NCBI GenBank assembly: GCA_965223845.1 | Contig: CBDCXR010000004.1 | Location: 7,584,001 to 7,648,000 of the forward strand | DNA from: Planctomycetota bacterium | Lineage (GTDB): Bacteria > Planctomycetota > UBA8108 > SXIK01 | Length of the DNA stretch: 64,000 nt | Direction of reading: 5' to 3' | In this document: positions 2,169-34,903 of the stretch, piece after piece | Numbering within the stretch: the stretch's first letter is position 1 | How the letters are laid out: every line of letters starts with the position of its first letter | Notes under the pieces: generated by a model | Database searches by the model: none | The model's input: only the letters and a program-made list of their open reading frames with translations | Told to the model about the DNA's origin: nothing | Translations under genes and position numbers: made by a program

Positions 2169-4165
2169 GCGTGTCGCGCATCCGTGTTCTCCCGCCCGAA
2201 GTCGTCAATCGCATCGCCGCGGGCGAGGTCGTCGAGCGGCCGGCGAGCGTCGTCAAGGAGCTCGCGGAGAACGCGATCGATGCCCAAGCGACGGAGGTCA
2301 CCGTCGTCCTCGAGGATGGCGGGAAGAAACGGATCCTCGTTCGCGACAACGGCTGCGGGATGTCGCCGGAAGATCTCAAGCTCGCGTTCGAGAGCCACGC
2401 GACGAGCAAGCTCCGCGACGCGGACCTCGAGTCGAACCAGCTCGGATTCGCGTCCCTCGGGTTTCGCGGCGAAGCACTCCCGAGCATCGCGTCGGTCGCG
2501 ATGGTCGAGGCGGTCTCGCTCGTCTCCGGCGGCGAGCACGCCTACCGCTTCCGCCCGGGAAGCGGCGAGCCCGAGCCCTGCGCCGGCGAGAGCGGAACCG
2601 CGATCGAGATCGGGAACCTGTTTTACAACACGCCGGCGCGCCGGAAGTTCCTGCGGGCGGGATCGACGGAGCTCTCGCACGTCGTTCAGCTCGTCTCGAG
2701 GCTCGCGATGGGTTTCCCCGCCGTGCGCTTCCGGCTCTTCCACGGGAAGCGGTCTGTCCTCGACCTATCGCCGGCGGACTCGATCGGCGAGCGCCTCCGG
2801 CAGATCGTCCCGCGGACGATCTCCGATCACCTCGTGGAGGTGCGCGAGGGCGACGATCCCGAGCTGCCGTCGATCGCCGGTTTCGTGGGGAAGCCGCGCG
2901 TCCATCGCCGCGATACGAAGGAGCAGCACTTCTTCGTGAACGGCCGGTGGATCCGCGATCGTACGCTCACGCACGCGCTGAGGAGCGCGTTTCAGGGATT
3001 CCAAATCTCCGGGTATCAGCCGGTCGCGTACCTCTTTCTCGATTTTCCCCGCGGAGACGTCGACGCGAACGTCCACCCGACCAAGACCGAAGTGCGGTTT
3101 CGCGACCCTTCGTCGATCTATCGGCTGGTCCACCACGCGGTGCGTCGTGCGATCGAGTCGTCGGGCGACGCGCTCGACTCGCCGACCGGCGAGGACGGGG
3201 CGGCCGCCGGAGCGTCCGCTGTCGCCGGAGCGGGTGCGGAGGAGGCTCGATCGGAGCGAGAACGCGAGCCGACCTACACGATGCAGGATCTCTTCGCCGA
3301 AATCGCCGGATCCGGTCCGCGCTCGCGAGATAGCGCGACGGTCCGGGGATCGAGCGCGCCGCCGGCGTCCACGCGGAACGAAGGGGCGACCGAAGATTTC
3401 CCGCCGGCCGAGGGCGACGGCCCTTGGACGGCCGGCGCGCCGCCGGAGACGAGCACGAGCGCCTCGGCCGCGGCGGTCGGAGTTGGCGCGGCGGAGCGAT
3501 CGCCGGAGGGGAGCGCGCCCGACTCGCTCGAGGCCCTCGCCGACTCGAGGCGCGTTCTTCAGGTGCTCGACTCCTACCTCGTCGTCGAAGTCGCGGGCGG
3601 AGTCCTTTTTGTCGACCAGCACGCACTCCACGAAATCATCCTCTTCGAGGAGATCTACCGGCGGCTCCTCGATGGGATCGTCGAGAGTCAGAAGCTGCTC
3701 GTCCCGGAGGTGGTCCGGATCCCGGCGGAGTACGTTCCGCTCGTCGAGCGCGCTTCGGAGATCCTCGGACGCTTCGGGTTCGAGCTCGAGGCGTTCGGTC
3801 CCGACAGCGTCGCGTTTCACTCGCTCCCGGCGCTCTTCGACCGCGAGGCGGGCCGCACCGACACGACGACCCTCGCGCTCTCCGTGCTCGAAGAGGTGCA
3901 GCGCGGCGTCGTCGCGACGGCGGGCCATCGGAGCGCGCGCGGCCGGGACCTGCCCGCGAGTGTCGACGAGCAGCTCCGCGACATCGGCGCGACGATCGCG
4001 TGCAAGCGAGCGGTCAAGGCCGGGACGCGACTGGCCGACGAAGAAATACAGAGTCTCCTCGAGCGCGGGAGCCGCGCGTTCGATCCGCGACACTGCCCGC
4101 ACGGTCGGCCGACCGCGGTGTTCCATGCGCGGCGCGACATCGAGCGGCTCTTCGATCGCAAGTGA
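2165..4165 (+). CDS. mutL: DNA mismatch repair endonuclease MutL
   Basis: GHKL motifs NRIAAGEVVERPASVVKELAENAIDA, HATSK and GFRGEAL; DANVHPTKTEVRF; C-terminal endonuclease motifs DQHALHE, ACK and CPHGRP. The GTG start overlaps the folD stop (GTGA). Confidence 0.96.
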   Translation: MSVSRIRVLPPEVVNRIAAGEVVERPASVVKELAENAIDAQATEVTVVLEDGGKKRILVRDNGCGMSPEDLKLAFESHATSKLRDADLESNQLGFASLGFRGEALPSIASVAMVEAVSLVSGGEHAYRFRPGSGEPEPCAGESGTAIEIGNLFYNTPARRKFLRAGSTELSHVVQLVSRLAMGFPAVRFRLFHGKRSVLDLSPADSIGERLRQIVPRTISDHLVEVREGDDPELPSIAGFVGKPRVHRRDTKEQHFFVNGRWIRDRTLTHALRSAFQGFQISGYQPVAYLFLDFPRGDVDANVHPTKTEVRFRDPSSIYRLVHHAVRRAIESSGDALDSPTGEDGAAAGASAVAGAGAEEARSEREREPTYTMQDLFAEIAGSGPRSRDSATVRGSSAPPASTRNEGATEDFPPAEGDGPWTAGAPPETSTSASAAAVGVGAAERSPEGSAPDSLEALADSRRVLQVLDSYLVVEVAGGVLFVDQHALHEIILFEEIYRRLLDGIVESQKLLVPEVVRIPAEYVPLVERASEILGRFGFELEAFGPDSVAFHSLPALFDREAGRTDTTTLALSVLEEVQRGVVATAGHRSARGRDLPASVDEQLRDIGATIACKRAVKAGTRLADEEIQSLLERGSRAFDPRHCPHGRPTAVFHARRDIERLFDRK

Positions 4166-4194
4166 GCGAGACCCGGACGGTCGAAGACCGAGCG

Positions 4195-5517
4195 ATGACA
4201 GAGAACCGAGCTCCCCGTTACGAGTACCTCGAACTGCCGGGCGACCTCCACCTCGCGCTCCTGCCGACGCGAAAGTTGAAGACCGTGACCGTGGTCGTCT
4301 CGCTCGTCGCCGATCTCTCCGAGGAGACCGTGACGCAGCACGCTCTCCTTCCCATGGTCCTCCGGCGGGGGACGTCGAGCCGCCCCGACCTTCAGTCGAT
4401 TCAGCGGTTCCTCGATCACCTCTACGGCGCGTCGATTCACGCTTCGGTGTACAAGGTGGGGGAGTGGCACGTCCTCCAGTTCCAGCTCGACGTCGTCAAC
4501 GAGCGATACGTTCCGGGTTCGGAGGAGATCTTGCGCCCGGCGCTCGCGTTTCTGCGCGAGCTCATCGCCGATCCGCTCCAAGTGGCCGGCGGGTTTTCGC
4601 CCGAGTTTGTCGAACAGGAAAAAGCGCAGCTCGGTCTCGCGATCGAAAGCCTCGTCGACTCGAAGCCCGCCTACGCCGCTCAGCGCCTCGTCGAGGAGAT
4701 GTGCGCGGACGAACCGTACCGTATCTACGCGCAGGGTCGCGTGGCAGATCTCGCTCAGGTCGACCCGCACAACTTGCGCGAGCGCCATCGCCGCGCCCTG
4801 TCGACGTACCCCATCTACGCGTACGTCACGGGTGATCTCGACGCCTCGAGGACGCGGGACCTCGTCGCCGAATGGTTTGACGACGACGTCTTCCGCCGCT
4901 CGGAGGAAGCCGCGCTGAAGCCGGCGACGATGCCCACCGCACCGCGTCGCGTCCGGGAAGTGAACGAGACTCTCGAGGTGAATCAGGCGCGCCTCCATCT
5001 CGGATATCGTCACGGGGTGACGTATTCGGATCCCGACTGTATTCCGCTTCTCGTCGCGAACGGCGTGCTCGGAGCCTACTCCCACTCGAAGTTGTTTCAG
5101 AACGTTCGAGAGAAAGAGAGCCTTTGCTACTCGATTTCGTCCGCGGTCGATCGCGCGAAAGGGCTCATGTTTATCGCGAGCGGAATCTCCGCGGAAACGC
5201 GTGAACGTACGCGCCGCATCATCGAAGAACAGATCGACGAGCTTCGGGCCGGCGCCATCTCCGACGAGGAGCTGAGCGCGACCCGCGTCACGCTCCTCAA
5301 CAGCAACGAGATGCTCGAGGACGACCTCGTCGCGCTCGCGGCGCTCGACCTGAGGTGGCGCCTCCACGGGCGAGGGCTCGACCTCGACGAGATTCGCAAT
5401 GAAATCCGTCGCGTCGGGAAGGACGACATCGTCCGCGTTGCGGGCCGCCTCGAACTCGACACCGTGTATTCGCTCGCGAGCGAGTCGAACGCCCAACCCA
5501 AGGAATCGCCGCGATGA
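4195..5517 (+). CDS. M16 peptidase family inactive subunit (YmfF-like)
   Basis: LYGA, GVLGAYSHSKLFQNVREKESLCYSISS and ASGI resemble Bacillus YmfF-type M16 proteins; no HxxEH motif. An alternative GTG start at 4162 overlaps the mutL stop. Confidence 0.8.
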   Translation: MTENRAPRYEYLELPGDLHLALLPTRKLKTVTVVVSLVADLSEETVTQHALLPMVLRRGTSSRPDLQSIQRFLDHLYGASIHASVYKVGEWHVLQFQLDVVNERYVPGSEEILRPALAFLRELIADPLQVAGGFSPEFVEQEKAQLGLAIESLVDSKPAYAAQRLVEEMCADEPYRIYAQGRVADLAQVDPHNLRERHRRALSTYPIYAYVTGDLDASRTRDLVAEWFDDDVFRRSEEAALKPATMPTAPRRVREVNETLEVNQARLHLGYRHGVTYSDPDCIPLLVANGVLGAYSHSKLFQNVREKESLCYSISSAVDRAKGLMFIASGISAETRERTRRIIEEQIDELRAGAISDEELSATRVTLLNSNEMLEDDLVALAALDLRWRLHGRGLDLDEIRNEIRRVGKDDIVRVAGRLELDTVYSLASESNAQPKESPR

Positions 5518-6836
5518 GTGACCTCCCAGAGCCGAGCACGAGTCGAAACGTCGAGCTCGGAGAGGAGATCCAGAGCGTCGTCCTCCCGTCGGGTCTCCGA
5601 GTCCTCTTCTGCCGGAAGCCAGGCTTCAAGAAGCGCTACGCCTGCTACTCGACGTGCTACGGTTCGGTGGACAGTCGATTCGCGGTCGGCTCGCCGTCGC
5701 ACGGGGCCGAGACCGTCGTCGACGTTCCGGACGGCATCGCGCACTTCCTCGAGCACGTGCTCTTCGAGACGCCGGAAGGGAATGTCTCCGATCTCTTCGC
5801 GCAGAACGGTGCGTACAACAACGCCGCGACATCGTTTACGACGACGACGTATCTCTTCGCCTGCACGGAGCGCTTCTACGACAATCTCGAGCTCCTGCTC
5901 CGCTTCGTCGAGAATCCGGTCTTCGACCCCGAGAAGGTCGAGAAGGAGCGCGGAATCATCGCCGAGGAGATCCGGGGCTACGACGACAGCCCGGACTGGG
6001 TCGCCTACATGGGACTTCTCGAGCGACTCTTCGTCGCCCACCCCTTTCGAATCGACATCGCTGGTACTACGGAGAGCATTCAAGAGATCAGCTCGGCGCT
6101 GCTCCACCGTTGTTACGAATCCTTCTACCGGCCGGAGAACATGATCCTCTTCGTCGTCGGTGATCTCGATCCGGGCGAGCTCTTCTCGTTCGTCGCGGCG
6201 CATTCGCGCGCGGGAAATCGCGCGAGCGACCGTGGTTCGATCTCGCGCATTTATCCGGAGGAGCCCGGGGAGGTCGCCGGCAAGGAGACGCGCGTCGAAA
6301 TGTCGGTCGCGCTTCCGAAGCTTCTCGTCGGCTTCAAGGAGATCGACATGCCGGCGCGCGGCTCCGAGTTCGTCGAGGTCGAGCTCGCGACCTCACTCGC
6401 ACTCGACGCCTTCTTCGGGCGGAGCAGCGATCTCTACCGCCGCTACTACGAACGGCAGTGGATCCTCGACGACTTTGGTGCGAGCTACAGCCTGGGTGCG
6501 AACGTCGGCTTCGCGATGGTCGGCGGAGATACGCCGGAACCCGATCGGCTGCGGGACGCGATTCTCGATGCCGCCGCGAGCGCCGATGTGCGGATCGATC
6601 CGGACGACTTCGAGCGGGAGAAGCGCCGGTTCCTCGGCGGCTGGATCGCCTCGTTCAACTCGCTCGAAACGATCGCTAACCTCTTCAGTTATTACCGGCT
6701 CTACGATTTCGATCTCTTCGATTCGGTGGAGCTCATCGCTGGGCTCGACCGCGAGCGCGTCGAGGCTCGGTTGCGCGAGCTCCTTCGACCCGATCGCGCG
6801 TCCGTGTACGTGGTCGAGCCGTCGGCGGCGTCGTGA
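5514..6836 (+). CDS. M16 zinc peptidase (YmfH-like)
   Basis: VPDGIAHFLEHVLFE (HxxEH), NAATSF.TT.YLF, EKERGIIAEEI and YRPENM. ATGA-coupled to the upstream gene. Confidence 0.9.
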   Translation: MSDLPEPSTSRNVELGEEIQSVVLPSGLRVLFCRKPGFKKRYACYSTCYGSVDSRFAVGSPSHGAETVVDVPDGIAHFLEHVLFETPEGNVSDLFAQNGAYNNAATSFTTTTYLFACTERFYDNLELLLRFVENPVFDPEKVEKERGIIAEEIRGYDDSPDWVAYMGLLERLFVAHPFRIDIAGTTESIQEISSALLHRCYESFYRPENMILFVVGDLDPGELFSFVAAHSRAGNRASDRGSISRIYPEEPGEVAGKETRVEMSVALPKLLVGFKEIDMPARGSEFVEVELATSLALDAFFGRSSDLYRRYYERQWILDDFGASYSLGANVGFAMVGGDTPEPDRLRDAILDAAASADVRIDPDDFEREKRRFLGGWIASFNSLETIANLFSYYRLYDFDLFDSVELIAGLDRERVEARLRELLRPDRASVYVVEPSAAS

Positions 6837-6871
6837 GGCCGGCGTTTCGCCGCCACCGGATCCGCCCAAAC

Positions 6872-6900
6872 TTGTTGCGGCCTCCGAGGGGCCGTATCAT
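6872..6900 (+). promoter_or_regulatory. Putative sigma70 promoter for the MoxR/vWA operon, with a palindromic spacer
   Basis: TTGTTG (6872-6877), a 17-nt spacer CGGCCTCCGAGGGGCCG, then TATCAT (6895-6900), 66 nt upstream of ATG 6967. Confidence 0.45.
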
Positions 6901-6966
6901 ACTCCCCAATCGGGCGGCTTTTCGGGCGCCCGGCCCCTCGAGTTTCAGGTTCCGGAGCTAGACTGG

Positions 6967-8742
6967 ATGTCGGATTCAGGACCCCAGCCGGTGGCGCACC
7001 CGAAGTCTCCGGGCGACTTGGAGTCGCGTGCGCTCGAACGGTTCGTGAAGCGCGTTCGGCGGCGCCTCGTGGCAAATCGATTGCTCAGCCATCTCGCGAC
7101 GGCGGTTCTCGTCGGCGTCTCTCTGGTGGCGGCCTTCCTTCTCGTCGATCGACTTCTTCTTCCCGATTCATTTCGGCCGGCGTACGCCGGTTGGATCATC
7201 GGCGGAACTGCTCTCGTCGCTCTCATCTGGACCTTCGTTCGAAGGCCGGTGACGCTGTTTCACGCCGCAGTAGCGGCGGATCGAGAGCTCGACCTCCGCG
7301 AGCGCGTTTCGACCGCGCGGTCCGGACTGGGAGGCGTCGATCCGGAGTGGAGCACCCTCATCGTCCGTGACGCGGAGCAAAGCGTCGAGACCGTCCGCCT
7401 CGCGAACGCATTTCCGGTCATCGTCGAGAGACGCGCGGCGTGGATTCTCGTGCCGCTCTTCGTGTCGATCGGCGTCTTTCTCTGGGCTCCGAGTCTCGAT
7501 CCCTTCGGGATCAAGGCCGAGGAGGCGGAGGCCGCGACCGTGAAGAAACTCATGGACGAACGGAAGGAGAAGCTCGATTCGGAGCTGGAAGAGCTTCAGA
7601 AGAAGGCCGAAGAGGCCGAGTCGGAGGAAGCGCGGAAACTCCTCAAGCTCCTCGCCGAGGACATCGCGAAGAAGAAGGACCCGACGAATTCCGAAAAGCG
7701 CGGAGAGAATGCGGGAGATCAGAACCGCGCGAAGAACGATCCACACAAGAACGCGCTCCTCGAGATGGCGAAGCGCGAGTCGATGATCAAGAAGGGTCTC
7801 GATCGCGATCAGTTTCGCAAGCTGAAGAACGCGCTGAAGGATTTGAAGGGCCTCGATCTCCGGCGGGCGGAGAAGACCCGCGCGCTGCAGGCGGCGCTCA
7901 AGGACGGCGATCTCGCTGCGGCGAAGCGAGAGCTCGACCGGCTCACGAAGAAGATCGCCGAGCTCGCCAAGAAGCCCCAGTCGCAGCTCACGAAGGAGGA
8001 GAAGGAGCTTCTCAAGAAGCTCCAGGAGGAGCTCGCGCGACTCGCGAAGGATTCCGGGGCGCTCGCCCAGCTCGCACCCAATCTCGGGAACTTCGGCGAC
8101 ATGGGTTCGCAGGGACTCCAGCAGATGCTGCAGAACATGCAGCAACTCGGCATGGATCTCGATGCGTTGAAGCAGCTTCAGAACGACATGGATTTTCTGA
8201 AGCAAGCACTCGACATGGTGCAGTTGTCGAAGCAGGACCTCGCGAAGCTGAGTCAGCACAAGTGCCCGAACTGCGGCAAGAACCTCGGCAAGAAACCCGG
8301 TCAGCCCGGCGGGACATGACAGGGCTCGGGAAAGCCCGGTGGCACGTGAAGTGGCACGGGTCAGAGCGGCGGTCGCCTCTCACAGAGTCAGTCGGGGCAG
8401 CAGGGCGCGGGGCTCACCCGGAGCCAGGGAAATCAGTCGGGGCCGAACTACGGCCAGGCGTACGGAAACGGATCTAGCTTTCGCGACGAGAAGACGACGT
8501 ACAAGCGCGACAAGGTCCGTGCGACGCGGCTCGATCCGCGGGGCACGGTGATCGGGAAGCTGGACGTCGAGGGTGTGACGCAGCGGGGTGAGGCGGAGCT
8601 CGAAAAGGGACTGACCGTCGCCGACGTGGCGCAGGAACGAACGGAAGAGGTCGAGCGTGAACCGCTTCCGGTCGAGTTCCGCGATCACGTGCGAACGTAC
8701 TACCAGATGCTCGTCGGCGAAGGGTCGGGCGAGGGAAAGTGA
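6967..8742 (+). CDS. Membrane-anchored coiled-coil protein; probable read-through of two in-frame UGA codons (candidate selenoprotein, 591 aa). The conventional call would be 6967-8319 plus a fragment at 8548-8742
   Basis: N-terminal TM helices, AADRELDLRERVSTA, a long Lys/Glu/Gln coiled coil, then CPNC...PGGT[TGA 8317]QGSGKPGGT[TGA 8347]SGTG and 130 more sense codons in the same frame ending ...EPLPVEFRDHVRTYYQML...; GGAG RBS before 6967. Confidence 0.7.
8335..8380 (+). promoter_or_regulatory. Two candidate bacterial SECIS hairpins
   Basis: Hairpin 8335-8360 has a GUGAA loop 26 nt after UGA1. Hairpin 8363-8380 (AGA..GGC-GGUC-GCC-UCU) has a GGUC loop 21 nt after UGA2. Confidence 0.5.
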
Positions 8743-8924
8743 TCTCGAGTCCCGTCGCTCCGGAGGTGACGTGCCGTGTCTCGCGCCGTTCGTGTTGATC
8801 CCCCGCGCGGTCGCGGCCGAGTGGGGCGGATCTTGACGTCCCCGTCGCTTCCGGCGGAAGTTCGACGCCGATCCGGCCGCTCGAACGATGCGGCCGGACC
8901 GTCAGGGATGGCGGAGCGTTCACC

Positions 8925-10136
8925 GTGGTGATCGCGCGGGTCGTGTTCTGGGGGGCGGTGGGTCTCGCCGTCGTCGCGTGGTGGTGGGCGGCACCGCGAA
9001 AGGAAGGGCAGGGCGCGGTGGCCGCGCCGCTCATCGTCGGCTCCCATGGGACGCAGCCCGGAGAATTCTTCAAGCCGCGCGCCATCGCGCTCGACGCCGG
9101 AGGTCGGTTTTACGTCGTCGATCGATCGGGGCGCGTGCAGTATTTTTCGGCCGACGGGACGATCGAACGCACGTGGCACTTGCCGGACTACGAGAACGGG
9201 CAGCCGGTCGGGCTGACGGTCGAGTCCGAAGGATCGCTCCTCGTTTGCGACAGTCACTACAGCCGCGTTCTCCGCTACTCGCGCGGCGGCGAAGAGGAGC
9301 TCGCGAGATGGGGGCGATGGGGGACGGGGCCGGGCGAGTTGACGTGGGGGAGGGACGTCGTCGTCGACAGCGCGGGTTTGATTTACGTGGGTGACTACGG
9401 TGGCGGAAACGATCGCATCGTCAAGTTCGCGTCTGACGGGCGCTATCTCGCCAGCTGGGGTTCGGCCGGCGATGCGCCGGGCCAGTTTCAGCGCCCGCAG
9501 GGGATGTGCATCGAGCGCACACCCGACGCCGAGTATCTCCTCGTTGCGGACTGCTCAAATCACCGCGTGCAGAGATTCACGCTCGATGGCGAGCTCGTGC
9601 GCGTCATCGGCGCGATGGGGCGCGGACGAGGTGAGTTTCGCTACCCGATGGCAGTAGCGGTCGGACCCACGGGAGATCTCTTCGTGTGCGAATGGGGAAA
9701 CAATCGCATTCAACGCCTGTCGCCGGAGGGAGAGTGTGTCGGTTTTTGGGGCGGACCCGGGGAGGAGCCCGGCCGGTTGGCGACACCGTGGGATCTAGAG
9801 ATCGACGCGGGCGGCACGATGTATGTCGTCGACTACGGCAACCATCGGGTTCAGATCTTCGAGTGGAGCGATAGTGCGTCGGTCGAGTCAGGGCGACCGG
9901 CCGAGTCGCAGTGGACGCTTCCCGGCCTAGTCGATCGGGAGCCGCAGGGGGCGGTCGATCTTCAGTCCGCGGCGGCGATACTCTCGGGCGATCGGGAGGG
10001 TGTGGAGGCGGCGAACGACGCCGTCGAGGACGAAGACGTCGAGCCCGAGGCTCGAGTCCCGGAGCCGGTGACCCCGTCTCCCCCGGCGAGTGACGGCGCC
10101 CGTTCCCAGGTGCGTACTCTGGAGGCTGGACGATGA
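8925..10136 (+). CDS. NHL-repeat (6-bladed beta-propeller) protein with N-terminal membrane anchor
   Basis: Repeated G..PG.F..P..IA.D..G..YV.D..N.RIQ.F units (e.g. GDAPGQFQRPQGM, ADCSNHRVQRF, DYGNHRVQIF); hydrophobic N-terminus; acidic tail. Confidence 0.85.
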   Translation: MVIARVVFWGAVGLAVVAWWWAAPRKEGQGAVAAPLIVGSHGTQPGEFFKPRAIALDAGGRFYVVDRSGRVQYFSADGTIERTWHLPDYENGQPVGLTVESEGSLLVCDSHYSRVLRYSRGGEEELARWGRWGTGPGELTWGRDVVVDSAGLIYVGDYGGGNDRIVKFASDGRYLASWGSAGDAPGQFQRPQGMCIERTPDAEYLLVADCSNHRVQRFTLDGELVRVIGAMGRGRGEFRYPMAVAVGPTGDLFVCEWGNNRIQRLSPEGECVGFWGGPGEEPGRLATPWDLEIDAGGTMYVVDYGNHRVQIFEWSDSASVESGRPAESQWTLPGLVDREPQGAVDLQSAAAILSGDREGVEAANDAVEDEDVEPEARVPEPVTPSPPASDGARSQVRTLEAGR

Positions 10137-13100
10137 GTGGACTTCCGATCGCCTTTGGCTCGCCGTGGTGGTTGCTGCTCCTCCTCGGGATTCCGGTGAT
10201 CTTCGTCCTCACCCACCGCAGCCTCTCGGGGCTCCCGCGCGGTCGGAGGTACTTCGCGATTGGACTCCGAACGCTCGTCCTGCTCCTCGTGGTGAGCGCG
10301 CTCGCGGAGATGCGTTTCCTCAAGGACAACGACCGGCTCGCCGTAATCTTCGTCGCGGATCTCTCCGAGAGCATCCCGGCGGCGCAGCGCGAGGCGGAGC
10401 GGGCCTACATGGTCGCGAAGGCGCGCGAGCGCTCGCAGGCGGAGGATCTCGTCGGCGTGGTCACGTTCGGCAAGGTGCCGGGCATCGAGTGGTCACCGAA
10501 GGACGCTCCGCTTCAGCTCGAGAGCTTCACGACGATCATCGAGCCGCAGGCGACGGACATCGCCGCCGGGATCCGGCTCGCCGCGGCGGCGTTCCCGGAC
10601 GACTACGGCAAACGCATCGTCCTACTCACCGACGGCAATCAGAACCGCGGAGACGTGGTCGAGGAGATCTACAACGCGCGGGCGATGGGGATCACGGTCG
10701 ACGTCGTTCCCATCACCTACGCGTACGGAGCGGAGATCTCGGTCGACAAGATCCTCGTCGAGCCGGAGCAGCACGTCGGCGAGCCCTTCGACCTCCGTGT
10801 GGTCGTCGAGTCGACGAAGGAGACGCAGGCCGAGCTGCAGCTCTTTCAAAACGGCCAGATGGTTCCGCAGGAGAATCCGATCGTCGAACTCTCGCCGGGG
10901 AGAAATGTCTTCGACTTCACGGGTCGGCGTGTCGATTCCGTCGGGCCGGTGAACTTCGAGGCGCGTATCGATCCGGTCAACGCGGCCGACGACAACGTCT
11001 TTCAAAACAACGCGGCGGCCGGATTCACGTTCGTCGGCGGCGAGCCGAAAGTCCTCCTCTGCTCGAACGACGCCGACGGCGACGCGGGCCTCCTCCGCGC
11101 GCTGCGCGAGGAGAACATCACGGTGGACGTGGTGCCTCCGGTCGGCCTCCCGGGGGAGATTCAGGACTACCTCCAGTACGACGGGATCATCGTCTCGAAC
11201 GTCGCGGCGACTCGTCTCTCCGATGCGACCATGAAGATGTTCGAGTCCCTCGTGAAGACCGTCGGGCTCGGATTCGTGATGATCGGGGGCGACGAGAGCT
11301 TCGGGGCCGGCGCGTACAAGGGGACGCCGGTCGAACGGCTTCTCCCGGTCGAAATGGACGTGAAGAACAAGAAGATCATGCCGAACGGCGCGATCGCCTT
11401 CGTCGTTCATTCGTGCGAGCTCGGAAACGGAAACCTCTGGGCGCGGCGCGTGATTCAGCGCGGGATCCAGATCCTCTCGCCGCGTGACTTTGCGGGGGTC
11501 ATCTCCTACGAGGCCGGTACGGATCGTTGGCTCTTTCCGATGTGGAGCGTGGCGCGTCGGCGCGAGATGCTCTCGCTTCTCCGGGGTTTCAATCCGGGAG
11601 ACATGCCGTCGTTCCTCAACATCGTCGATATGGCCTATAAGGGCCTCCGGGCGACGACCGCATCGATTCGCCACATGGTGATCCTCACCGACGGCGATCC
11701 CACCCCGCCGACGACTCAGACCGTGTCTCAGATCCGAGCCGCGGGGATCACGATTTCGACGATCGTCTACGGCTCCCACGGAGTTTCACCGGTTGCGATG
11801 AAGCAGCTCGCGGCGCAGGGCGGCGGCAACTTCCACATGCTTCAGGGGCCGGATCAGCTTCCGGAGATCTTCATTCGCGAGACGACGACGATCACAAAAT
11901 CGCTGATCAACGAGGAGACGTTCACTCCGATCAAGCAGCACGGACATCCGATCCTCACCGGAGTCGGTGACGCGGGGATGCCCTCTCTCGACGGCTACGT
12001 CCTCACTTCGCCGAAGTCGCTCGCGACCGTCCCGATCGTCCACCCGCCCGTGCCGGAGGACCCCACTCTCGACCCGATCCTCGCAGCGTGGAACTACGGT
12101 CTCGGTAAGGCGGTGGCGTTCACTTCGGACAGCGGCCACCGCTGGGGCCAAGGCTGGGTGTCCTGGTCCCAGTACCGCCAGTTCTGGGGGCAGTGCGTGC
12201 GGTGGACGATGCGCTCGCGGAGCGACGATCGCTTTCGCGTAACCCGTTCGATCGCCGGGGCGACGGCGAAGCTGCACATCGACGCGCTCACTCCCGACGG
12301 AAGATTCATCAACGGACTCGACATCCAGGGTACGGTCGTTTCGCCCGACTACGAGTCCACGGGGATCACCGTCCGGCAGACCGCACCCGGCAGCTACGAA
12401 GCGTCCTTCCCGATCGCGAAGAAAGGTACCTATACCGTTACGCTCGCCTACGAGCGTGACGGAGTGCGGCAATCGTACGTCACCGGCGTGAGCGTCCCCT
12501 ATTCAGCCGAGTACCGGAAGCTGGCGACGAACCACGATCTGCTCACGAAGATCGCGGCGGCCGGCGAAGGCCGCTACATCGCCGACGTCGAAGGCGCTGA
12601 GTTTTTCAGTCGGGATTTTCCGAAGACGCGAGACGTACAAGACGTGTGGGACGCGCTCCTCATCTTCGCGGTGTGCTTCTTTTTCGTCGACGTATTCGTT
12701 CGGCGCGTCACGATCGACTATCGCCGCGCGATCGCTCGCGGCTGGGAGCGAGTTCTCGCGGTACTGATGTTCCGGCGACTAGAACCCGCTCCGACGGACG
12801 CTCGCCTCGCGACCCTCCTCGAGCGAAAGGCGAAGCTGCGCGAGGCGACGGAGAGCCGCTATCGAGCCGCGGAGGAGCGCGCGGCGCGCGGCGAGACGGT
12901 CGTTCGTCCCGCGAAGGACGGGACGACCGGGCCGCGAGTCGCTCGACCGGCGTCTCCCCCCGCCGGGGCGGATGACGCATCGAGCGAAGAAGCCGCCCGC
13001 GCGGCGGACGAAACGCTGGCCGCGTTCTCGGGGCGGCCGTCCTCGTCGGCGGGCAAGTCGGACGATGCCGCGAAGGCGGACGGGGCCAAACCCGAGGCGG

Positions 13101-13204
13101 AAGAGAAGAAACCTCCGGAGCCATCGGGCGGCGCGTACACCGCGCGACTGCTCGAGGCCAAGAAACGAGCGCTCAAGGACAAGGAAGACCAGGGAGACCG
13201 CTGA
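10133..13204 (+). CDS. Membrane protein with vWA, glutamine-amidotransferase-like and second vWA domains
   Basis: N-terminal TMs, MIDAS DLSES, RIVLLTDGNQN, GFVMIGGDESFGAGAYKGTPVERLLPV, HMVILTDG, WNYGLGKAVAFTSD, and a C-terminal TM with DVFVRR. Confidence 0.85.
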   Translation: MSGLPIAFGSPWWLLLLLGIPVIFVLTHRSLSGLPRGRRYFAIGLRTLVLLLVVSALAEMRFLKDNDRLAVIFVADLSESIPAAQREAERAYMVAKARERSQAEDLVGVVTFGKVPGIEWSPKDAPLQLESFTTIIEPQATDIAAGIRLAAAAFPDDYGKRIVLLTDGNQNRGDVVEEIYNARAMGITVDVVPITYAYGAEISVDKILVEPEQHVGEPFDLRVVVESTKETQAELQLFQNGQMVPQENPIVELSPGRNVFDFTGRRVDSVGPVNFEARIDPVNAADDNVFQNNAAAGFTFVGGEPKVLLCSNDADGDAGLLRALREENITVDVVPPVGLPGEIQDYLQYDGIIVSNVAATRLSDATMKMFESLVKTVGLGFVMIGGDESFGAGAYKGTPVERLLPVEMDVKNKKIMPNGAIAFVVHSCELGNGNLWARRVIQRGIQILSPRDFAGVISYEAGTDRWLFPMWSVARRREMLSLLRGFNPGDMPSFLNIVDMAYKGLRATTASIRHMVILTDGDPTPPTTQTVSQIRAAGITISTIVYGSHGVSPVAMKQLAAQGGGNFHMLQGPDQLPEIFIRETTTITKSLINEETFTPIKQHGHPILTGVGDAGMPSLDGYVLTSPKSLATVPIVHPPVPEDPTLDPILAAWNYGLGKAVAFTSDSGHRWGQGWVSWSQYRQFWGQCVRWTMRSRSDDRFRVTRSIAGATAKLHIDALTPDGRFINGLDIQGTVVSPDYESTGITVRQTAPGSYEASFPIAKKGTYTVTLAYERDGVRQSYVTGVSVPYSAEYRKLATNHDLLTKIAAAGEGRYIADVEGAEFFSRDFPKTRDVQDVWDALLIFAVCFFFVDVFVRRVTIDYRRAIARGWERVLAVLMFRRLEPAPTDARLATLLERKAKLREATESRYRAAEERAARGETVVRPAKDGTTGPRVARPASPPAGADDASSEEAARAADETLAAFSGRPSSSAGKSDDAAKADGAKPEAEEKKPPEPSGGAYTARLLEAKKRALKDKEDQGDR

Positions 13205-14209
13205 ATGAGCACCGTGAACACCGAGGAGATGGCGGCGAAAGCGGCCGAGTTCCGCGACAAGTTCAAATCCGTCCGGGACGAAGTCGCCAAGATGATCGTC
13301 GGCCAGACGGAGATCATCGACGACGTTCTCATCGCTCTCTTCGCGGGTGGCAATTGCCTGCTCGAAGGCGTGCCCGGCCTCGGAAAGACGCTGCTGGTTC
13401 GCACGCTGAGCGAGGTCCTCGATCTCTCGTTCTCCCGCATCCAATTCACGCCCGATCTCATGCCCGCGGACATCATCGGGACGACGATCGTGTCGGTTGA
13501 CGACGAAGGGCGGCGGAGCTTCCAGTTCCAGCGTGGTCCGATCTTCGGGCAGATCGTACTCGCCGACGAAGTGAACCGAGCGACGCCGAAGACGCAATCC
13601 GCGCTGCTCGAGGCGATGCAGGAAAAGAGCGTGACCGTCGGCGGTGAGAACCACGTCCTCCAGCAACCGTTCACCGTTCTTGCGACGCAAAACCCCCTCG
13701 AGATGGACGGGACGTATCCACTCCCCGAAGCGCAGCTCGATCGCTTCATGTTCAAGCTGCTCGTTCGGTATCCGTCGCGAGAGGATCTTTCGACGGTGCT
13801 CGATCGCACGGTCGATCCCTACGATGGCGCGCGGGAGCGCATCATGGACGGCCCCGAGATCGAGGAGTGGAAGACGCTCGTGCGGCAGGTCGTCGTCGCT
13901 CCGCACGTCAAGGACTACGCGGTCCGCCTCGTTCTCGCGACCCACCCGGGAAGCGACTACGCGACCGAGAAGGTCAACCAGTACGTGCGCTACGGCTCGA
14001 GTCCCCGCGGTGCGCAGGCTTTGCTGCTCTCGGCGAAGATCCACGCGCTGCTCGACGCCCGCTACAACTCGAGCTTTCAGGATGTGAAGCGATCAGCCCA
14101 TGCGGTCCTTCGCCATCGCATCCTGCTCAATTTTGAAGGCGAAGCGGAATCGGTCGACACCGACACGGTGATCGACGAAGTCATCGCGAAGGTCGCGGAC
14201 ACCGAGTAG
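13205..14209 (+). CDS. moxR: MoxR family AAA+ ATPase
   Basis: Motifs LEGVPGLGKT, RIQFTPDLMPADI, LADEVNRATPKTQSALLEAMQE, ATQNP.E..GTYPLPEAQLDRF and SPR. Confidence 0.95.
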   Translation: MSTVNTEEMAAKAAEFRDKFKSVRDEVAKMIVGQTEIIDDVLIALFAGGNCLLEGVPGLGKTLLVRTLSEVLDLSFSRIQFTPDLMPADIIGTTIVSVDDEGRRSFQFQRGPIFGQIVLADEVNRATPKTQSALLEAMQEKSVTVGGENHVLQQPFTVLATQNPLEMDGTYPLPEAQLDRFMFKLLVRYPSREDLSTVLDRTVDPYDGARERIMDGPEIEEWKTLVRQVVVAPHVKDYAVRLVLATHPGSDYATEKVNQYVRYGSSPRGAQALLLSAKIHALLDARYNSSFQDVKRSAHAVLRHRILLNFEGEAESVDTDTVIDEVIAKVADTE

Positions 14210-14213: not shown

Positions 14214-15113
14214 GTGAAGACCGAAAAGCGTCTCCTCGACGAGGATTTCATCGCGAAGATCGAGCAGCTCGAGCTCGTCTCCAAGCGCGTCGTCGCCGGC
14301 CTTCTGAAGGGCGACCGCTTGTCGAAGCGGCGCGGGTACTCGAATGAATTCGCCGACTTTCGCGCGTACGTTCCGGGAGATGATCTGCGTTACCTCGATT
14401 GGAACGTCTACAGTCGACTCGACCGGCTGTTCATTAAGATCTTTCTCGAGGAAGAGGATCTTCGCCTCAGCATCCTGATCGACCGAAGTCCGTCGATGGA
14501 CTACGGTGATCCGAACAAGTTTCTCTTCGCGAAGCAGCTCGCCGCCGCGCTCGGATACATCGGACTCGTCAACCAGGACCGCGTCCAGGTTGCGGGATTC
14601 GCTCAGACGCTCCAGCCGATCTTTGGCCCCTCGCGCGGGCGCCGCCAGGCGCGCCGACTCTTCGACGTGCTGCAGAATCTCGAGTGCGACGACGCGCCGG
14701 GAACGGATCTCTCGGTCGCGTGCCGCCGATTCGCGCAGTCGCTCCGCGGCGGCGGAATCGTCGTGCTCGTCTCCGACCTCTTGGACCGCCAGGGATTCGA
14801 GGGCGCGCTGCGCTACTTGCTCGCGGCGGGGCGCGCGAGCGAGATCCTCGTGTTCCACGTCCTCAGTCCGGAGGAACTCTCGCCTCAGCTCACGGGCGAC
14901 CTTCGACTCGTCGACGTCGAAGACGGTGCCGTCTCGGAGATCTCGATCAGCTCCCGTCTTCTCGATCGCTACCAGAAGACTCTCGCGACGTTTTGCGCGG
15001 AAGTGAGGGAGTATTGTTCTGCGCGGGGAATGCACTACGTGCCGACGTCGAGCGCGCAGCCGTTCTCGGATCTCGTCCTCGGCTACCTCAGGCGGCGGGG
15101 ACTCGTGCGATGA
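14214..15113 (+). CDS. DUF58 domain protein
   Basis: G.S.EFADFRAYVPGDDLRYLDWN, K.F.EE, LIDRSPSM and LVSD; directly follows moxR. Confidence 0.92.
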   Translation: MKTEKRLLDEDFIAKIEQLELVSKRVVAGLLKGDRLSKRRGYSNEFADFRAYVPGDDLRYLDWNVYSRLDRLFIKIFLEEEDLRLSILIDRSPSMDYGDPNKFLFAKQLAAALGYIGLVNQDRVQVAGFAQTLQPIFGPSRGRRQARRLFDVLQNLECDDAPGTDLSVACRRFAQSLRGGGIVVLVSDLLDRQGFEGALRYLLAAGRASEILVFHVLSPEELSPQLTGDLRLVDVEDGAVSEISISSRLLDRYQKTLATFCAEVREYCSARGMHYVPTSSAQPFSDLVLGYLRRRGLVR

Positions 15114-15202
15114 CGTGGACGCATCTCAGCTTGCGCCTCGATCGTGAACGGCGGATCCGCGCGCGCGAGCACGCACCTCGTTCGGAGTCGACTGAGCGAT
15201 GA
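15110..15202 (+). other. 30-codon mini-ORF (MTWTHLSL...) bracketed by a 14-bp imperfect direct repeat; may be non-functional
   Basis: ATGA overlap with both the DUF58 stop and the next start; GCGATGACGTGGAC (15107-15120) versus GCGATGACCTGGAC (15196-15209). Confidence 0.35.
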
Positions 15203-17142
15203 CCTGGACTCCGATCTACTGGCTTCTCCTCTTCCTTCCGGCGTTGATCGCGCTCTATTTCCTCAAGCTGAAGCGCGTAGAGGCCGTCGTCTCGAGCACG
15301 ATCCTCTGGCGGCGCTCGGTCGAGGATCTGCATGTGAACGCGCCGTTTCAGAAACTGAGGCGGAGCCTCCTCCTCCTTCTTCAGCTCCTCATTCTCGCCG
15401 CGTTGATCATCGCGCTCTGGCGGCCCCGTTCGGTCGGCGAGCTCGAAGCGGGGCGCAATATGCTGCTTCTCATCGACCGCTCGGCGAGCATGTCCGCTGA
15501 AGATGGCGACGGGACGAGGCTCGACGCGGCGAAGGCCCGCGCGCGCGAGTTGATCGAGGCGATGAAATCGGGGGACCGTGCCGCCGTCCTGACGTTCGCG
15601 GCGCGGACGCAAACGATCGAACCGATCACGAGCGATACCGGATCGCTTCTCCGTGCCGTCGAGTCGATCGAGGTGACGGCCGCACCCACGAATCTCGTCC
15701 AAGCATTGACGGTCGCCGGCGCGCTTGCCGACGCGCTTCCCGGAAGCGTCGTGCAGGTGCTCGGAGACGGCTGTTATGTCGATCCAGAGACGCTCCCCGA
15801 AGAGGTGAAGCGTCAGAACGTCCAGTTTCACAGTTCGGCGACGGCGATCGACAATGTCGCGATCGTCGACGCGGACGTCCGGCACACGTTCGAAACGCGC
15901 CAGAGAACCGAGGTTCTCGCCGTCGTCGAAAACGCGGGCGCGAGCGAGTGGAAGGGAACCGTCGGAATCTACTTCGAACCGGACGAATCGCCGGACGGGG
16001 ACGACGGGGGGCCGACGCTCCGCGACGCGGACGAGCTCACGATCCCACCGGGTCAATCGAGGCCGGCTCTCTTCGACGCGAGTGAGTACGGCGCCGGGAT
16101 GGCGAGGATCGAGATCGACGCCGGAGACGGGCTCGGCGTCGACGACCGCGCCTGGGTGAGGATCGACTTCCCCGACCCCGTGCGGGTCAAGTTCGTCGGG
16201 GTAGAGAACGAGTGGATCGAGCTCGTTCTCAAAGCGAGTCGGCGGGTTCGCTCCAGTCGGCTCACGCTCGCCGAATACGAGGACGCGGTGCGCGGAGTCG
16301 CGCGCGACGACGTGAGCGAGACTCTCGCCGCCGACGTGGTGATCTTCGATCGCGAAGCCCCGAGCGCGCTACCGGTGTTGCCGTCCCTCTTCATCGGGTG
16401 CGTCCCTCCGCTCCCGCTATTCGAGAAGCGAACCGCCGTCGAGTATCCGCAGATCATCGACAAGGACGGCAATCACCCCGTCAACCGCTTCCTCACGTAC
16501 ACTGATCTCTCGATCGAGAAGGCGTCGATCTTTCCCGAGTCGAACGAGCTCCGTCCGATCGTGCACTCGGACGAGGGGCCGCTCGTCGCGACGCTCCACC
16601 ATCGCGAACCGGGTGCATCGCCGGTTCCGTACCTGCTCGTCGGGTTCAACATCCTCGACTCGAACTGGCCGCTGGGGCACTACTCGTTCCCGATTTTCTT
16701 CGCGAACGCCGTCGAGTGGCTCCGCCGTGAGGAGGGAGGTGCGCAGAGCCGGTTTCGAACGGGCGAACCGCTCGTCTTCCGTCCTCCGCGCGGAGAGGAC
16801 GAAGCGGATTGGGCGGCCGCGCGCATTCAGACTCCGAGCGGGGCGACTCGCATCCCGACGCGCGATGAGGACGGCGCCATCGTCCTCGCGTCGACGAACG
16901 AGGTAGGGCTCTACAGCATCCTCGCGGGTGACGCGCGGAGAGCGCGGGTGGCCGTCGGACTCCTCAGCTCGGCGGAGTCCCGACTTTCCCCGCGGGAGAA
17001 GATCAACTTCGGCGCCTACGAGGTCACGGTCTCCACCGAAGCCGAACAGGGGACGACCCACTACTGGAAGTGGTTCGCCTTGGCTGCAGTTCTCGTTCTC
17101 TTCGGCGAATGGTACGTGTACAACCGGCGATTGGGGATGTGA
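15199..17142 (+). CDS. BatA-like N-terminal domain plus vWA membrane protein
   Basis: LYFLKLKR...VSSTILW...LLLLLQLL (BatA-like N-terminus), MIDAS DRSASM, GDG, and a C-terminal TM with EWYVYNRR. Confidence 0.88.
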   Translation: MTWTPIYWLLLFLPALIALYFLKLKRVEAVVSSTILWRRSVEDLHVNAPFQKLRRSLLLLLQLLILAALIIALWRPRSVGELEAGRNMLLLIDRSASMSAEDGDGTRLDAAKARARELIEAMKSGDRAAVLTFAARTQTIEPITSDTGSLLRAVESIEVTAAPTNLVQALTVAGALADALPGSVVQVLGDGCYVDPETLPEEVKRQNVQFHSSATAIDNVAIVDADVRHTFETRQRTEVLAVVENAGASEWKGTVGIYFEPDESPDGDDGGPTLRDADELTIPPGQSRPALFDASEYGAGMARIEIDAGDGLGVDDRAWVRIDFPDPVRVKFVGVENEWIELVLKASRRVRSSRLTLAEYEDAVRGVARDDVSETLAADVVIFDREAPSALPVLPSLFIGCVPPLPLFEKRTAVEYPQIIDKDGNHPVNRFLTYTDLSIEKASIFPESNELRPIVHSDEGPLVATLHHREPGASPVPYLLVGFNILDSNWPLGHYSFPIFFANAVEWLRREEGGAQSRFRTGEPLVFRPPRGEDEADWAAARIQTPSGATRIPTRDEDGAIVLASTNEVGLYSILAGDARRARVAVGLLSSAESRLSPREKINFGAYEVTVSTEAEQGTTHYWKWFALAAVLVLFGEWYVYNRRLGM

Positions 17143-33742: not shown

Positions 33743-34903
33743 ATGGTGAGCTACAAGGACGCCGGGGTCGACATCGACGCCGGGGACGCGGCGGTCCGCC
33801 TGATGTCGGATCACGTGCGGAGCACGTACACGCCGCAGGTTCTCACTGGAAGCCACGGCGGCTTCGCCGGACTCTTTCAGCTCGACTACCCGCGCGGGCT
33901 CCTTCGGCGCAACTACCGCGATCCGGTGCTCGTCGCGTGCACGGACGGAGTCGGGACGAAGCTCGAGATCGCATTCCGCACGGGCCGTTCCGACACGGTC
34001 GGCATCGATCTCGTCGCCATGTCGGTGAACGATCTCGTCGTCCAGGGCGCGGAGCCGCTCTTCTTTCTTGACTACGTCGCCGTGGGAAAGCTCGACCCGA
34101 AGGTCGTTGCTCAGATCGTCGCGGGTATCTCGCGCGGGTGTCGCGAAGCCGGCTGCGCGCTTCTCGGCGGCGAGACGGCAGAGATGCCGGGCTTCTATCC
34201 CGCCGGAAGCTACGACCTCGCGGGGTTCGCCGTCGGCGTCGCGGAGAAGCGCCGCCTCGTTCTCGGCGACCGGGTGGCTCCCGGCGACCAGATCATCGGG
34301 CTCGCCTCGAGCGGATTTCATTCGAACGGGTACTCGCTCGTCCGTCGGGTCGTCGACGATGCCGGTCTCGAGCTGACTGGCGTTCCGGCGGGGCTCGACG
34401 TTCCGCTCGCCGACGCGCTCCTCGAACCGACGAAGATCTACGTGAAGCCGATCCTCCACATCCTCAACCGCTACCGGCGGAAGCGCGTCGTGCACGCGAT
34501 GGCGCACATCACGGGAGGGGGGCTACCGGGAAATCTGCCGCGGGTGCTCCCCAAAAACGTCGACGCGGCCGTGTGGACGAGTCGGTGGACGGTGCCGCCG
34601 GTGATCGAGCTGATCCAGGAACACGCCAAGATCTCCGATCAGGAGATGCGCCGAGTCTTCAATATGGGGATCGGCATGGCGATCGTCGTCTCGAGTCACT
34701 TCTGCGAGTCGATCCTGGCGCAGTTCGCGGCGCTGGGCGTCGATGCGGTGCACATCGGTGAGATCCGCGCCGGCAGCGGTCGGCTCCTCGTCGGCAAGGC
34801 GCCGCGAAAGAGGGCGAAGGCGCGATCGACTTCGACGCCGAAAACGAGGAAGAAGAAACCTCGCGCGTCGCTCAACGGCTCCCGTTCGGCCAAACGCCGC
34901 TGA
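33743..34903 (+). CDS. purM: Phosphoribosylformylglycinamidine cyclo-ligase
   Basis: SYKDAGVDIDAG, TDGVGTK, GIDLVAMSVND, GGETAEMPG, SSGFHSNGYSL, HITGGG and FNMGIG. ATG at 33743. Confidence 0.97.
   Translation: MVSYKDAGVDIDAGDAAVRLMSDHVRSTYTPQVLTGSHGGFAGLFQLDYPRGLLRRNYRDPVLVACTDGVGTKLEIAFRTGRSDTVGIDLVAMSVNDLVVQGAEPLFFLDYVAVGKLDPKVVAQIVAGISRGCREAGCALLGGETAEMPGFYPAGSYDLAGFAVGVAEKRRLVLGDRVAPGDQIIGLASSGFHSNGYSLVRRVVDDAGLELTGVPAGLDVPLADALLEPTKIYVKPILHILNRYRRKRVVHAMAHITGGGLPGNLPRVLPKNVDAAVWTSRWTVPPVIELIQEHAKISDQEMRRVFNMGIGMAIVVSSHFCESILAQFAALGVDAVHIGEIRAGSGRLLVGKAPRKRAKARSTSTPKTRKKKPRASLNGSRSAKRR

Follow-up and report, generated by a model that had tools for sequence, protein, structure and literature searches.

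A probable selenoprotein with two selenocysteine codons heads a conserved MoxR/vWA gene cluster in the Planctomycetota

We analysed a stretch of 64,000 nt from a Planctomycetota bacterium (assembly GCA_965223845.1, contig CBDCXR010000004.1, positions 7,584,001 to 7,648,000; hereafter the window), and focused on a gene at 6967–8742 whose two internal TGA codons are probably read as selenocysteine (Sec, U). From the ATG at 6967 on the forward strand, the frame runs through 450 sense codons to a TGA at 8317–8319, through nine further codons to a TGA at 8347–8349, and through another 130 sense codons to a TGA at 8740–8742. Read through, the product is 591 aa in length and carries C433-P-N-C436, U451 and U461, with both U residues lying within PGGT-U-xGxG and with a tail that reads EPLPVEFRDHVRTYYQML (residues 565–582). 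An earlier note, made from the letters of this DNA alone, had proposed the gene as that of a new selenoprotein; its coordinates for the gene, both internal TGAs and the final codon were all right. TGA is also an ordinary stop in this genome, as that note had held, since an upstream M16 peptidase gene ends at TGA 6834–6836 and the selenoprotein gene itself at TGA 8740. The features of the locus are collected in Table 1.

Table 1. Features of the candidate selenoprotein gene and its neighbours, in window coordinates
Feature	Position	Strand	Basis or remark
GGAG, possible ribosome-binding site	6954–6957	+	9 nt upstream of ATG 6967; read from sequence
Complete candidate selenoprotein gene	6967–8742	+	591 codons including two putative Sec-UGAs, plus terminating TGA 8740–8742; homologues align over residues ~5–591
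N-terminal membrane domain (residues ~20–175)	7024–7491	+	Hydropathy; AlphaFold2 pLDDT (predicted local distance difference test) ~90
Long helical K/E/L/A-rich, coiled-coil-like region (residues ~182–429)	7510–8253	+	AlphaFold2 secondary structure; composition; only sub-threshold coiled-coil-type family hits
C433-P-N-C436, CxxC half of putative Cys/Sec site	8263–8274	+	C433 = 8263–8265, C436 = 8272–8274
Gly/Gln/Ser-rich low-complexity linker with both putative Sec sites (residues ~437–504)	8275–8478	+	Composition; pLDDT
First putative Sec codon (U451)	8317–8319	+	Context PGGT-U-QGSG; TGA in 9/9 order-level two-Sec homologues
Hairpin 1, candidate SECIS (selenocysteine insertion sequence) for UGA 8317	8334–8361	+	10 bp, one bulge, one G.G mismatch, -14.7 kcal/mol
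Second putative Sec codon (U461)	8347–8349	+	Context PGGT-U-SGTG; alignment position; best R1 match in window begins here
Hairpin 2, putative SECIS for UGA 8347	8364–8381	+	GAG-C-GGC / GGUC loop (8371–8374) / GCC-U-CUC; -7.1 kcal/mol; homologous-stem covariation in 17 sequences
Conserved C-terminal module (residues ~505–591)	8479–8739	+	Alignment: G.(I/V)VG…G..P.GEA, then two helices with the end …E.(L/I)P.E(Y/F)R..V..Y(F/Y)..L; helices 551–564 and 569–586, pLDDT 67–77; purifying selection
NHL-repeat beta-propeller gene	8925–10136	+	Pfam NHL 1.4e-29
1023-aa vWA + GATase1-like protein	10133–13204	+	Pfam VWA_2, VWA_3, GATase1_like
MoxR AAA+ ATPase	13205–14209	+	Pfam AAA_3 8.9e-62
DUF58	14214–15113	+	Pfam 2.6e-36
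BatA-N/vWA protein	15199–17142	+	Pfam BatA + VWA_2

The DNA is GC-rich and the list of open reading frames (ORFs) holds many long, overlapping, spurious entries, so that an open frame beyond a stop is weak evidence when taken alone, and the case therefore rests on comparison with other genomes. For the frame after 8349, the ORF list of the window contains no ORF of at least 80 aa with a start of its own, and a scan of 6700–9100 for promoters and terminators found nothing. The genome is a metagenome-type assembly of 7.93 Mb in 4 contigs and is 91.7 % complete. Contigs from four public runs (two samples from one study) were identical to the window over 8200–8500, the Sec site included, although these runs are possibly the source of the assembly.

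A six-frame search of 41 genomes, comprising the window's own and 40 relatives, found a homologue in 21. The match contained in-frame TGAs in 20 of these genomes (two TGAs in 13 and one in seven), and in none of the 21 did it contain a TAA or TAG. Because the in-frame TGAs are conserved among the homologues, and are never replaced by TAA or TAG, the signal is far above chance. The matches all extended to about residue 582–591, at 25–42 % identity. With TGA written as U, the order-level copies read CP(N/D/E)CG…PGGT-U-xG…GG(T/L)-U-xG. The copies of one class-level family (f6) are split, six reading CPDCL(A/N/K)GT-U-…GG(T/A)-U-(Q/E)(G/A) and the other six CPDCLAG(K/T)-C-…SGGT-U-SG, so that half of them have Cys at the first Sec site (U in L024, L025, L026, L028, L044 and L045; C in L027, L029, L030, L031, L032 and L046). 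The second ligand is C in L023 and L033, two copies from family f4 have U followed by Cys, and the copy in genome G005 (L022) lacks TGAs altogether, being an all-Cys form that reads CKSCGKAGQCNSQGKCGSCSG. Trp was found at none of the Sec columns in the aligned homologues. The CxxC pair, C433 and C436, is nearly invariant in alignment A1 and invariant in alignment A2.

Conservation continues well beyond the UGAs. The 120–140 residues past the last TGA align throughout and follow the pattern G.(I/V)VG…G..P.GEA…E.(I/L)P.E(Y/L)(R/K)..V..YF..L, and differences between close pairs of genes in this region fall mainly at third codon positions. The ratios of synonymous to non-synonymous differences in close pairs were 21:7 and 23:8 downstream of the TGAs vs 87:24 and 75:24 upstream; judged from these substitution patterns, the 130 downstream codons are under purifying selection that is as strong as that upstream. 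By accepted comparative criteria, a selenoprotein gene is recognised by conserved TGA codons, by Sec/Cys pairs and by selection that persists past the stop, and the homologues bear out the expectation of TGA or Cys at 451 and 461 with conservation continuing downstream.

A further 40 copies, extracted with a bias towards TGA forms, included 29 whose TGAs again fall in the Gly/Cys-rich stretch that joins the helical region to the C-terminal module, in motifs such as GGSGGT-U-SGGGSCG and FCQNCGLTGGT-U-KSGG…GT-U-GGG. The assembled set comprises 49 genes with 75 internal TGAs from 20 families in GTDB; the multi-Sec forms have two or three UGAs, spaced 21–45 nt apart, which places the Sec residues 7–15 residues apart. 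The largest number of in-frame TGAs that we observed was three, in L053 (G260:C17, around 33839–35392), which reads CPS-U-GEKKDGPSG-U-KGKSGEG-U-PGG and has Sec also in place of the second Cys in CxxC. A maximum-likelihood tree of 61 copies, obtained from a quick search of a biased sample and midpoint-rooted, requires at least 15 changes in Sec number and places the all-Cys G005 copy within a two-Sec clade (Shimodaira–Hasegawa-like approximate likelihood-ratio support of 95).

The genome encodes the machinery needed for Sec. Its selenocysteine tRNA (tRNA-Sec) scores 68.1 bits against Rfam RF01852 (cut-off 47 bits) and has the anticodon tca according to ARAGORN; SelA was matched at 453 bits, SelB through a wing_3 domain at 69 bits in a 684-aa frame, and SelD at 308 bits. 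Additionally, a formate-dehydrogenase (FdhA)-type gene outside the window (G000:C4:4984214–4984963, L105) has one in-frame TGA in the context …CSRA-U-HAPT…, which corresponds to the classical UHxP context of Sec, and a GGUCGCC-GGUCU-GGCGGCC hairpin follows this TGA by 13 nt. It is a second selenoprotein gene of the genome, probably likewise cut short by gene callers. The presence of tRNA-Sec, SelA, SelB, SelD and the FdhA-type Sec gene indicates that the organism uses selenocysteine, and the candidate cannot be dismissed for want of decoding machinery. The open frame that holds the SelD match (G000:C4:5317241–5318161, outside the window; L010) is 809 aa long, much more than is usual for SelD, and may encode a fusion protein. 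Within the window, a weak SelD/AIR-synthase-like match at 34025–34297 (24 bits, E 5.7e-5, in a 540-aa frame) is probably another enzyme of the PurM superfamily and not SelD.

The distribution of the family across the phylum was examined with a profile of 23 family members, searched against 301 genomes sampled from the Planctomycetota. The family was present in 170 of the 301 genomes, and SelA exceeded the cut-off in 227. Among the matches listed (150 of 320), 39 genomes carried copies with one to three in-frame TGAs and 80 had stop-free copies only. SelA was detected in all 39 of the former; of the latter, 46 had SelA and 34 did not (Fisher p = 1.3e-7, uncorrected for relatedness). No TGA form was found in a genome lacking the Sec machinery among the genomes examined.

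Hairpins with features of bacterial SECIS elements follow the UGAs. In all copies a hairpin is positioned ~11–21 nt after the last UGA, with a GGUC, GGUU, AGUU or GGUCU loop and with stems that are lineage-specific (GCUCC/GGAGC, GGCCGC/GCGGCC, GUGAACGA/UCGUUCAC, GGGCAA/UUGUCC, GGCUGC/GCAGCC and CGUGC/GCACG). RNAalifold returned no structure for a first alignment of 34 sequences, in which some rows were mis-registered and one clade had a 5-nt loop, and covariation was tested instead on a gap-free subset of 17 sequences. In this subset, 86.8 % of cells in the 8 bp stem after the last UGA were paired, vs 36–45 % when the 3' partner was slid, and all eight pairs showed changes on both sides. The covariation score was 0.726 vs 0.10–0.19 with the slid partner, a value that was reached by none of 500 shuffles.

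A covariance model built from the 17-sequence alignment (R1) was then run on both strands of 44 held-out loci (150 kb). Of the 13 matches at E<=1, 12 began exactly at a Sec-UGA; the thirteenth (E 0.17) was located elsewhere in a Cys-form locus, and R1 had no match at the homologous place of the 11 other Cys-only loci. In the window, whose sequence is part of the R1 training set, the sole strong match was at 8347–8401 (37.6 bits, E 6.7e-7). A second match at 5351–5405 (E 0.18), which starts at a TGA out of frame with the M16 peptidase gene, was treated as chance. No match in the window reached the gathering threshold of any Rfam family.

A 2026 review (PMC13188914) describes the bacterial SECIS (bSECIS) as having a loop of 3–9 nt with G at the first two positions, a stem of at least 4 bp, 16–37 nt between UGA and loop, and a minimum free energy of -7.5 kcal/mol or lower. 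Such a hairpin is present at 56 of the 75 Sec-UGAs, vs 11.8 % of 24,155 other in-frame codons in the same genes, and loops that start with GGU occur at 28 of the 75 Sec sites vs a background of 0.49 %. In two-Sec forms, a 43-nt segment centred on the downstream UGA folds with a mean z of -1.71 and is in the lowest 5 % of its own gene in 13 of 26 cases; the corresponding values for the first or only UGA are -0.27 and 2 of 49. As judged by inspection of minimum-free-energy folds, the downstream UGA is in the apical loop of a 7–10 bp hairpin in 17 of 26 intervals, and L044 and L045 differ by one compensating pair in the hairpin around this UGA. The same arrangement is found in the window: the apical loop of hairpin 1, G-UGA-A (8346–8350), holds the second Sec codon, its stem beginning 14 nt and its loop 26 nt after the first UGA, and the stem and loop of hairpin 2 begin 14 and 21 nt, respectively, after the second. 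Both hairpins come near to the bSECIS description, with a fit in loop and spacing (GUGAA at 26 nt and GGUC at 21 nt). Hairpins with covariation after the UGAs thus add to the support for Sec decoding.

The predicted protein is built as a membrane-anchored stalk. A hydropathy scan identified three hydrophobic helices (residues ~38–60, 73–91 and 157–175), preceded by a segment with seven K/R residues, and an AlphaFold2 model made with a 23-row alignment is helical up to residue 429. By positive-inside reasoning, we infer that everything from the stalk through the Sec site to the C-terminal module lies outside the cytoplasmic membrane. Foldseek found no match below E 0.7 for the full-length model in the PDB. 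AlphaFold2 predicted no globular fold for the C-terminal 175 residues of the all-Cys homologue; the model comprises one helix, a knuckle of low confidence, a linker that is disordered and a helical hairpin.

The linkers of Cys-only relatives offer the closest view of what the Sec residues may replace. Four is the most frequent number of Cys residues in this segment (38 of 121 full-length database relatives), often arranged as CxxCxGxG-CxxCxGxG. DnaJ/Hsp40 proteins contain CxxCxGxG repeats that bind zinc, and the earlier note had linked the gene to these. The likeness holds for the Cys-only relatives, and the Sec forms retain U-x-G-x-G; membership of the DnaJ family does not hold, as the best-scoring family member (L063) reached 27.8 bits against PF00684 (E 3e-6), below the gathering threshold of 32.7 bits, and the window protein had no match. 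The family also differs in having one four-ligand site rather than two, and in having neither a J domain nor a chaperone context. From the sequence motifs, we infer that the Cys2/Sec2 site may be a four-ligand knuckle of the zinc-finger kind with two ligands turned to Sec, and it could equally be a redox centre. The linker of one copy (L113, G218:C5:143200–146300) contains a very long (QGQQGQ)n tract within which the frame changes, whether through a genuine frameshift or because the assembly slipped in this simple repeat, and the copies in G048 and G183 (L056 and L059) have similar QG repeats with no Cys at all.

To compare gene neighbourhoods, the genes that flank the candidate in the window were searched by tblastn in 21 loci, each spanning about ±9 kb. 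All six order-level relatives, including one whose locus is cut by a contig end, share the order selenoprotein, NHL, vWA/GATase1-like, MoxR, DUF58 and BatA-N/vWA on a single strand, and the first three genes of the cluster are kept in five class-level relatives. The NHL gene lies directly downstream in 11 of 11 order- and class-level loci (L084–L094) and downstream on the same strand in 14 of the 21 loci; the vWA/GATase1-like gene is downstream on the same strand in 17, and MoxR lies within the same stretch in 12, including one Cys form. The description of the gene as the lead gene of a MoxR/vWA operon is therefore upheld as far as gene order is concerned. The vWA/GATase1-like protein, which is kept beside the NHL gene across the phylum, comprises two vWA domains, a GATase1-like domain (PF07090) and a filamin-like repeat. 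Upstream, MutL and two M16 peptidase genes are common to the order-level relatives only. In the window, two adjacent M16-family peptidase genes (3424–6836) lie directly upstream of the selenoprotein gene, and the true start of the first is later than its longest-ORF reading suggests, since that reading overlaps the end of mutL.

The cluster resembles Bat-type clusters in combining MoxR (AAA_3), DUF58 and BatA-N/vWA genes. It differs in that the window protein matches no Bat family (BatA–E), and in the addition of an NHL propeller and a giant vWA/GATase1-like protein.

We found no earlier record of this family as a selenoprotein. The window protein matched no Pfam family at E<=0.01 apart from a sub-threshold match of coiled-coil type, it is covered by no NCBIfam family, and Pfam searches of alignment members revealed no common family. 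Membership of DUF4175 (PF13779), which consists of long low-complexity membrane proteins of similar build, was considered and rejected, as it was suggested by only one of 23 members (L022; 16.5 bits, E 0.002) and below the 27.3-bit cut-off. Selenoprotein models of NCBIfam were absent from the hits of 10 sequences at E<=1, the NCBIfam models of the deep-Sep 'hypothetical protein' families had no match to the sequences scanned, and the 119 prokaryotic selenoprotein families and subfamilies in Table 1 of the 2026 review (PMC13188914) include no similar entry. The deep-Sep 'hypothetical protein' families come from Desulfobacterota (PMC12013277), BSepDB was compiled from known families (PMC13326102), and selenoproteins in a Planctomycetes genome paper were found by homology to known ones (PMC4807772). 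In the literature searched we found no description of the family, no selenoprotein linked to MoxR/vWA clusters and no bacterial 'tandem SECIS'; an earlier listing is possible in the supplements of PMC4807772 (P1/P2 candidates) and in BSepDB. The earlier note had likewise named no comparable selenoprotein family, which is consistent with NCBIfam, the 2026 catalogue and this literature.

At E<=1e-3 the wider protein family comprises 11,319 representative clusters, and a cut-off of E<=1e-30 leaves 2,335, so that the family is large. Public copies of the selenoprotein are truncated. All 13 close homologues from a word-index search are 437–478 aa in length and cover 68–75 % of the query. We examined 165 database relatives, of which 44 are no longer than 490 aa: 35 of these end exactly at …GGT, a further eight stop within the Cys/Gly motif or immediately ahead of it, and one extends to the genuine tail. 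Such ends are the product of gene callers that stop at the first Sec codon. The pattern GGT-C-x-G, which would suggest an annotated Sec record, was found in none of the 121 full-length relatives.

Known small, soluble multi-Sec proteins offer the nearest parallel, since they too have more than one Sec each, substituting for Cys ligands in short, Cys-rich motifs that are likely to bind metal; they and the present family are all known from comparative genomics only. There is no sequence relationship between them and the window family, which consists of membrane-anchored helical proteins of ~590 aa and in which each Sec is set in G-G-T-U-x-G and has its own hairpin. With regard to decoding, the candidate resembles the classical bacterial SECIS in the FdhA-type gene of the same genome in having an in-ORF hairpin with a stem that begins 13–14 nt after the UGA and a GGUC(U) loop, in line with the published bSECIS consensus for loop and spacing. 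It differs in that two such elements stand back to back and the apical loop of the first contains the second Sec codon.

Taken together, conserved TGA/Cys positions, downstream selection, SECIS covariation and the presence of the Sec machinery strongly support the new-selenoprotein reading of 6967–8742. On this comparative evidence, we put at roughly 90 % the probability that the gene is a genuine selenoprotein gene in which both internal TGAs are selenocysteine codons, and that it belongs to a family which is widespread in the Planctomycetota and absent from current catalogues.

Several observations weigh against this interpretation. The window's two hairpins are among the weaker ones in the family: their stems are interrupted and fail a strict reading of the constraints, under which 4 bp or more of the upper stem must be unbroken, the energy of hairpin 2 is -7.1 kcal/mol vs the -7.5 threshold, and the region 8300–8440 folds no better than its shuffles (z -0.11). 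Across the family, 19 of the 75 Sec-UGAs fail the bSECIS constraints, and the segment that follows the last UGA shows a mean z of only -0.84, with 8 of 49 in the lowest 5 %; in coding DNA this rich in GC, these hairpins do not stand out by folding energy alone. Because R1 contains coding flanks and several of the loci set aside for its test are closely related to training rows, the test is not fully independent. The cross-tabulation with SelA was made by hand on 150 of 320 matches and ignores phylogeny. One genome scored as stop-free (G288, which has SelA) has two TGAs between aligned stretches, and another (G218, 83 % complete) has no SelA match, yet has tRNA-Sec and SelB. Its split matches and lack of SelA had made G218 a suspected counterexample; this was rejected, because the family copy in G218 contains no in-frame TGA and is of the Cys type, its frame changing within a long (QGQ)n repeat. 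At the protein level, the Sec-bearing segment is predicted to be disordered (pLDDT <50 over 446–549), and 8 of 121 full-length relatives have no Cys in the linker, which argues that the Cys/Sec site is not essential to the fold of the family. No RNA run is among the public runs listed for the stretch, and less full-length protein is to be expected when two UGAs have to be passed in succession. Regarding the context, the role of Bat/MoxR clusters is itself unsettled, and Leptospira biflexa is reported to show no oxidative-stress phenotype after deletion of its entire set of bat genes (PMC3557215).

Four other explanations were considered. The locus could have a dual output: the 450-aa anchor and stalk would be the main product and Sec read-through would add a little full-length protein when selenium allows, or the proportions would be inverted according to how much selenium is available. 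Bacterial Sec decoding is inefficient enough that two UGAs 30 nt apart should compound the loss, hairpin 2 is weak at -7.1 kcal/mol, and the 450-aa product would keep the confidently modelled membrane domain and stalk; but selection on the downstream 130 codons is as strong as upstream, and because these codons are fused in frame in every Cys form, the full-length product matters. We therefore regard a dual output as unlikely. As Sec insertion is accepted in both accounts, it would in any case refine the preferred explanation rather than replace it. There is only a slender chance that the UGAs are read by other means, such as a near-cognate tRNA for Trp, Cys or Gly or a local recoding signal, to give a full-length, selenium-free protein. 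Although the sites lie in a Gly-rich stretch and TGA is one base away from TGG and TGY, the homologue columns show Cys and never Trp, the hairpins match bacterial SECIS elements in their GGUC-type loop, their spacing and their covariation and resemble the FdhA-type hairpin of the genome, and SelA accompanies every TGA form among the matches listed.

The database annotations, with 13 of 13 homologues at 437–478 aa and 35 of 44 short relatives ending …GGT, would suggest that the gene ends at TGA 8317 and that the remainder is untranslated or a separate gene. Such ends are what gene callers produce at any TGA, whereas the downstream frame retains 25–42 % identity under purifying selection, has no start that would give an ORF of at least 80 aa, and is continuous with the upstream frame in Cys forms; we accord this explanation very little credence. 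Finally, a metagenome-type assembly in 4 contigs that is 91.7 % complete could contain sequencing or assembly errors, or the gene could be a decaying pseudogene. The same TGAs occur in the same motif in dozens of independently assembled genomes, the interruptions are exclusively TGAs with no frameshifts, selection is intact, and the contigs of the four runs are identical over 8200–8500, though these may be the source; the probability of error or decay is negligible.

Under the preferred Sec reading, the gene would encode a three-helix membrane anchor, a helical stalk of ~250 residues, a Cys/Sec knuckle in a Gly-rich linker and a C-terminal module. SelB and Sec-tRNA(Sec) would be recruited in turn by the two in-ORF hairpins: hairpin 1 (8334–8361), with the second Sec codon in its apical loop, would serve UGA 8317, the ribosome would pass and melt this hairpin, and hairpin 2 (8364–8381) would then serve UGA 8347, with translation terminating at UGA 8740. 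The decoding signals and their relay-like arrangement are established by comparison across the family, and this order of events is deduced from them. The four Cys/Sec ligands would take the place of the CxxCxGxG-CxxCxGxG knuckle of Cys-only relatives, and where the stalk meets the C-terminal module they would form a site that either binds metal in the manner of a zinc knuckle or is redox-active. Conservation of the cluster suggests that the protein may work with the neighbouring NHL, vWA/GATase1-like, MoxR, DUF58 and BatA-like proteins.

We further speculate that the locus represents a new Sec-decoding architecture, a relay of in-ORF SECIS elements, one carrying in its apical loop the Sec codon that the following element serves, and that it supplies a non-enzymatic, membrane-anchored scaffold. 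The Cys2/Sec2 knuckle of this scaffold, which has up to three Sec in some forms, would tie the assembly or activity of a Bat-like MoxR/vWA machine to selenium supply or redox state, and a shortage of selenium would leave the 450-aa stalk without its C-terminal module. This proposal is tentative, and as a whole we think it more apt to fail than to stand.

The finding would add a large family to the bacterial selenoproteome, with Sec forms in at least 20 GTDB families of the Planctomycetota, and would expose a systematic annotation error, whereby database copies are cut immediately ahead of the first UGA. The majority of selenoproteins described so far are soluble oxidoreductases; a non-enzyme membrane scaffold with up to three Sec, and with its second Sec codon in the loop of the first SECIS, would be unusual among them. 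The arrangement may provide a natural system in which to study the hand-over of SelB and the ribosome between adjacent SECIS elements, and may be useful for the production of multi-Sec proteins. A selenium/sulphur metal or redox centre would also be the first chemical clue to the function of Bat-type MoxR/vWA clusters.

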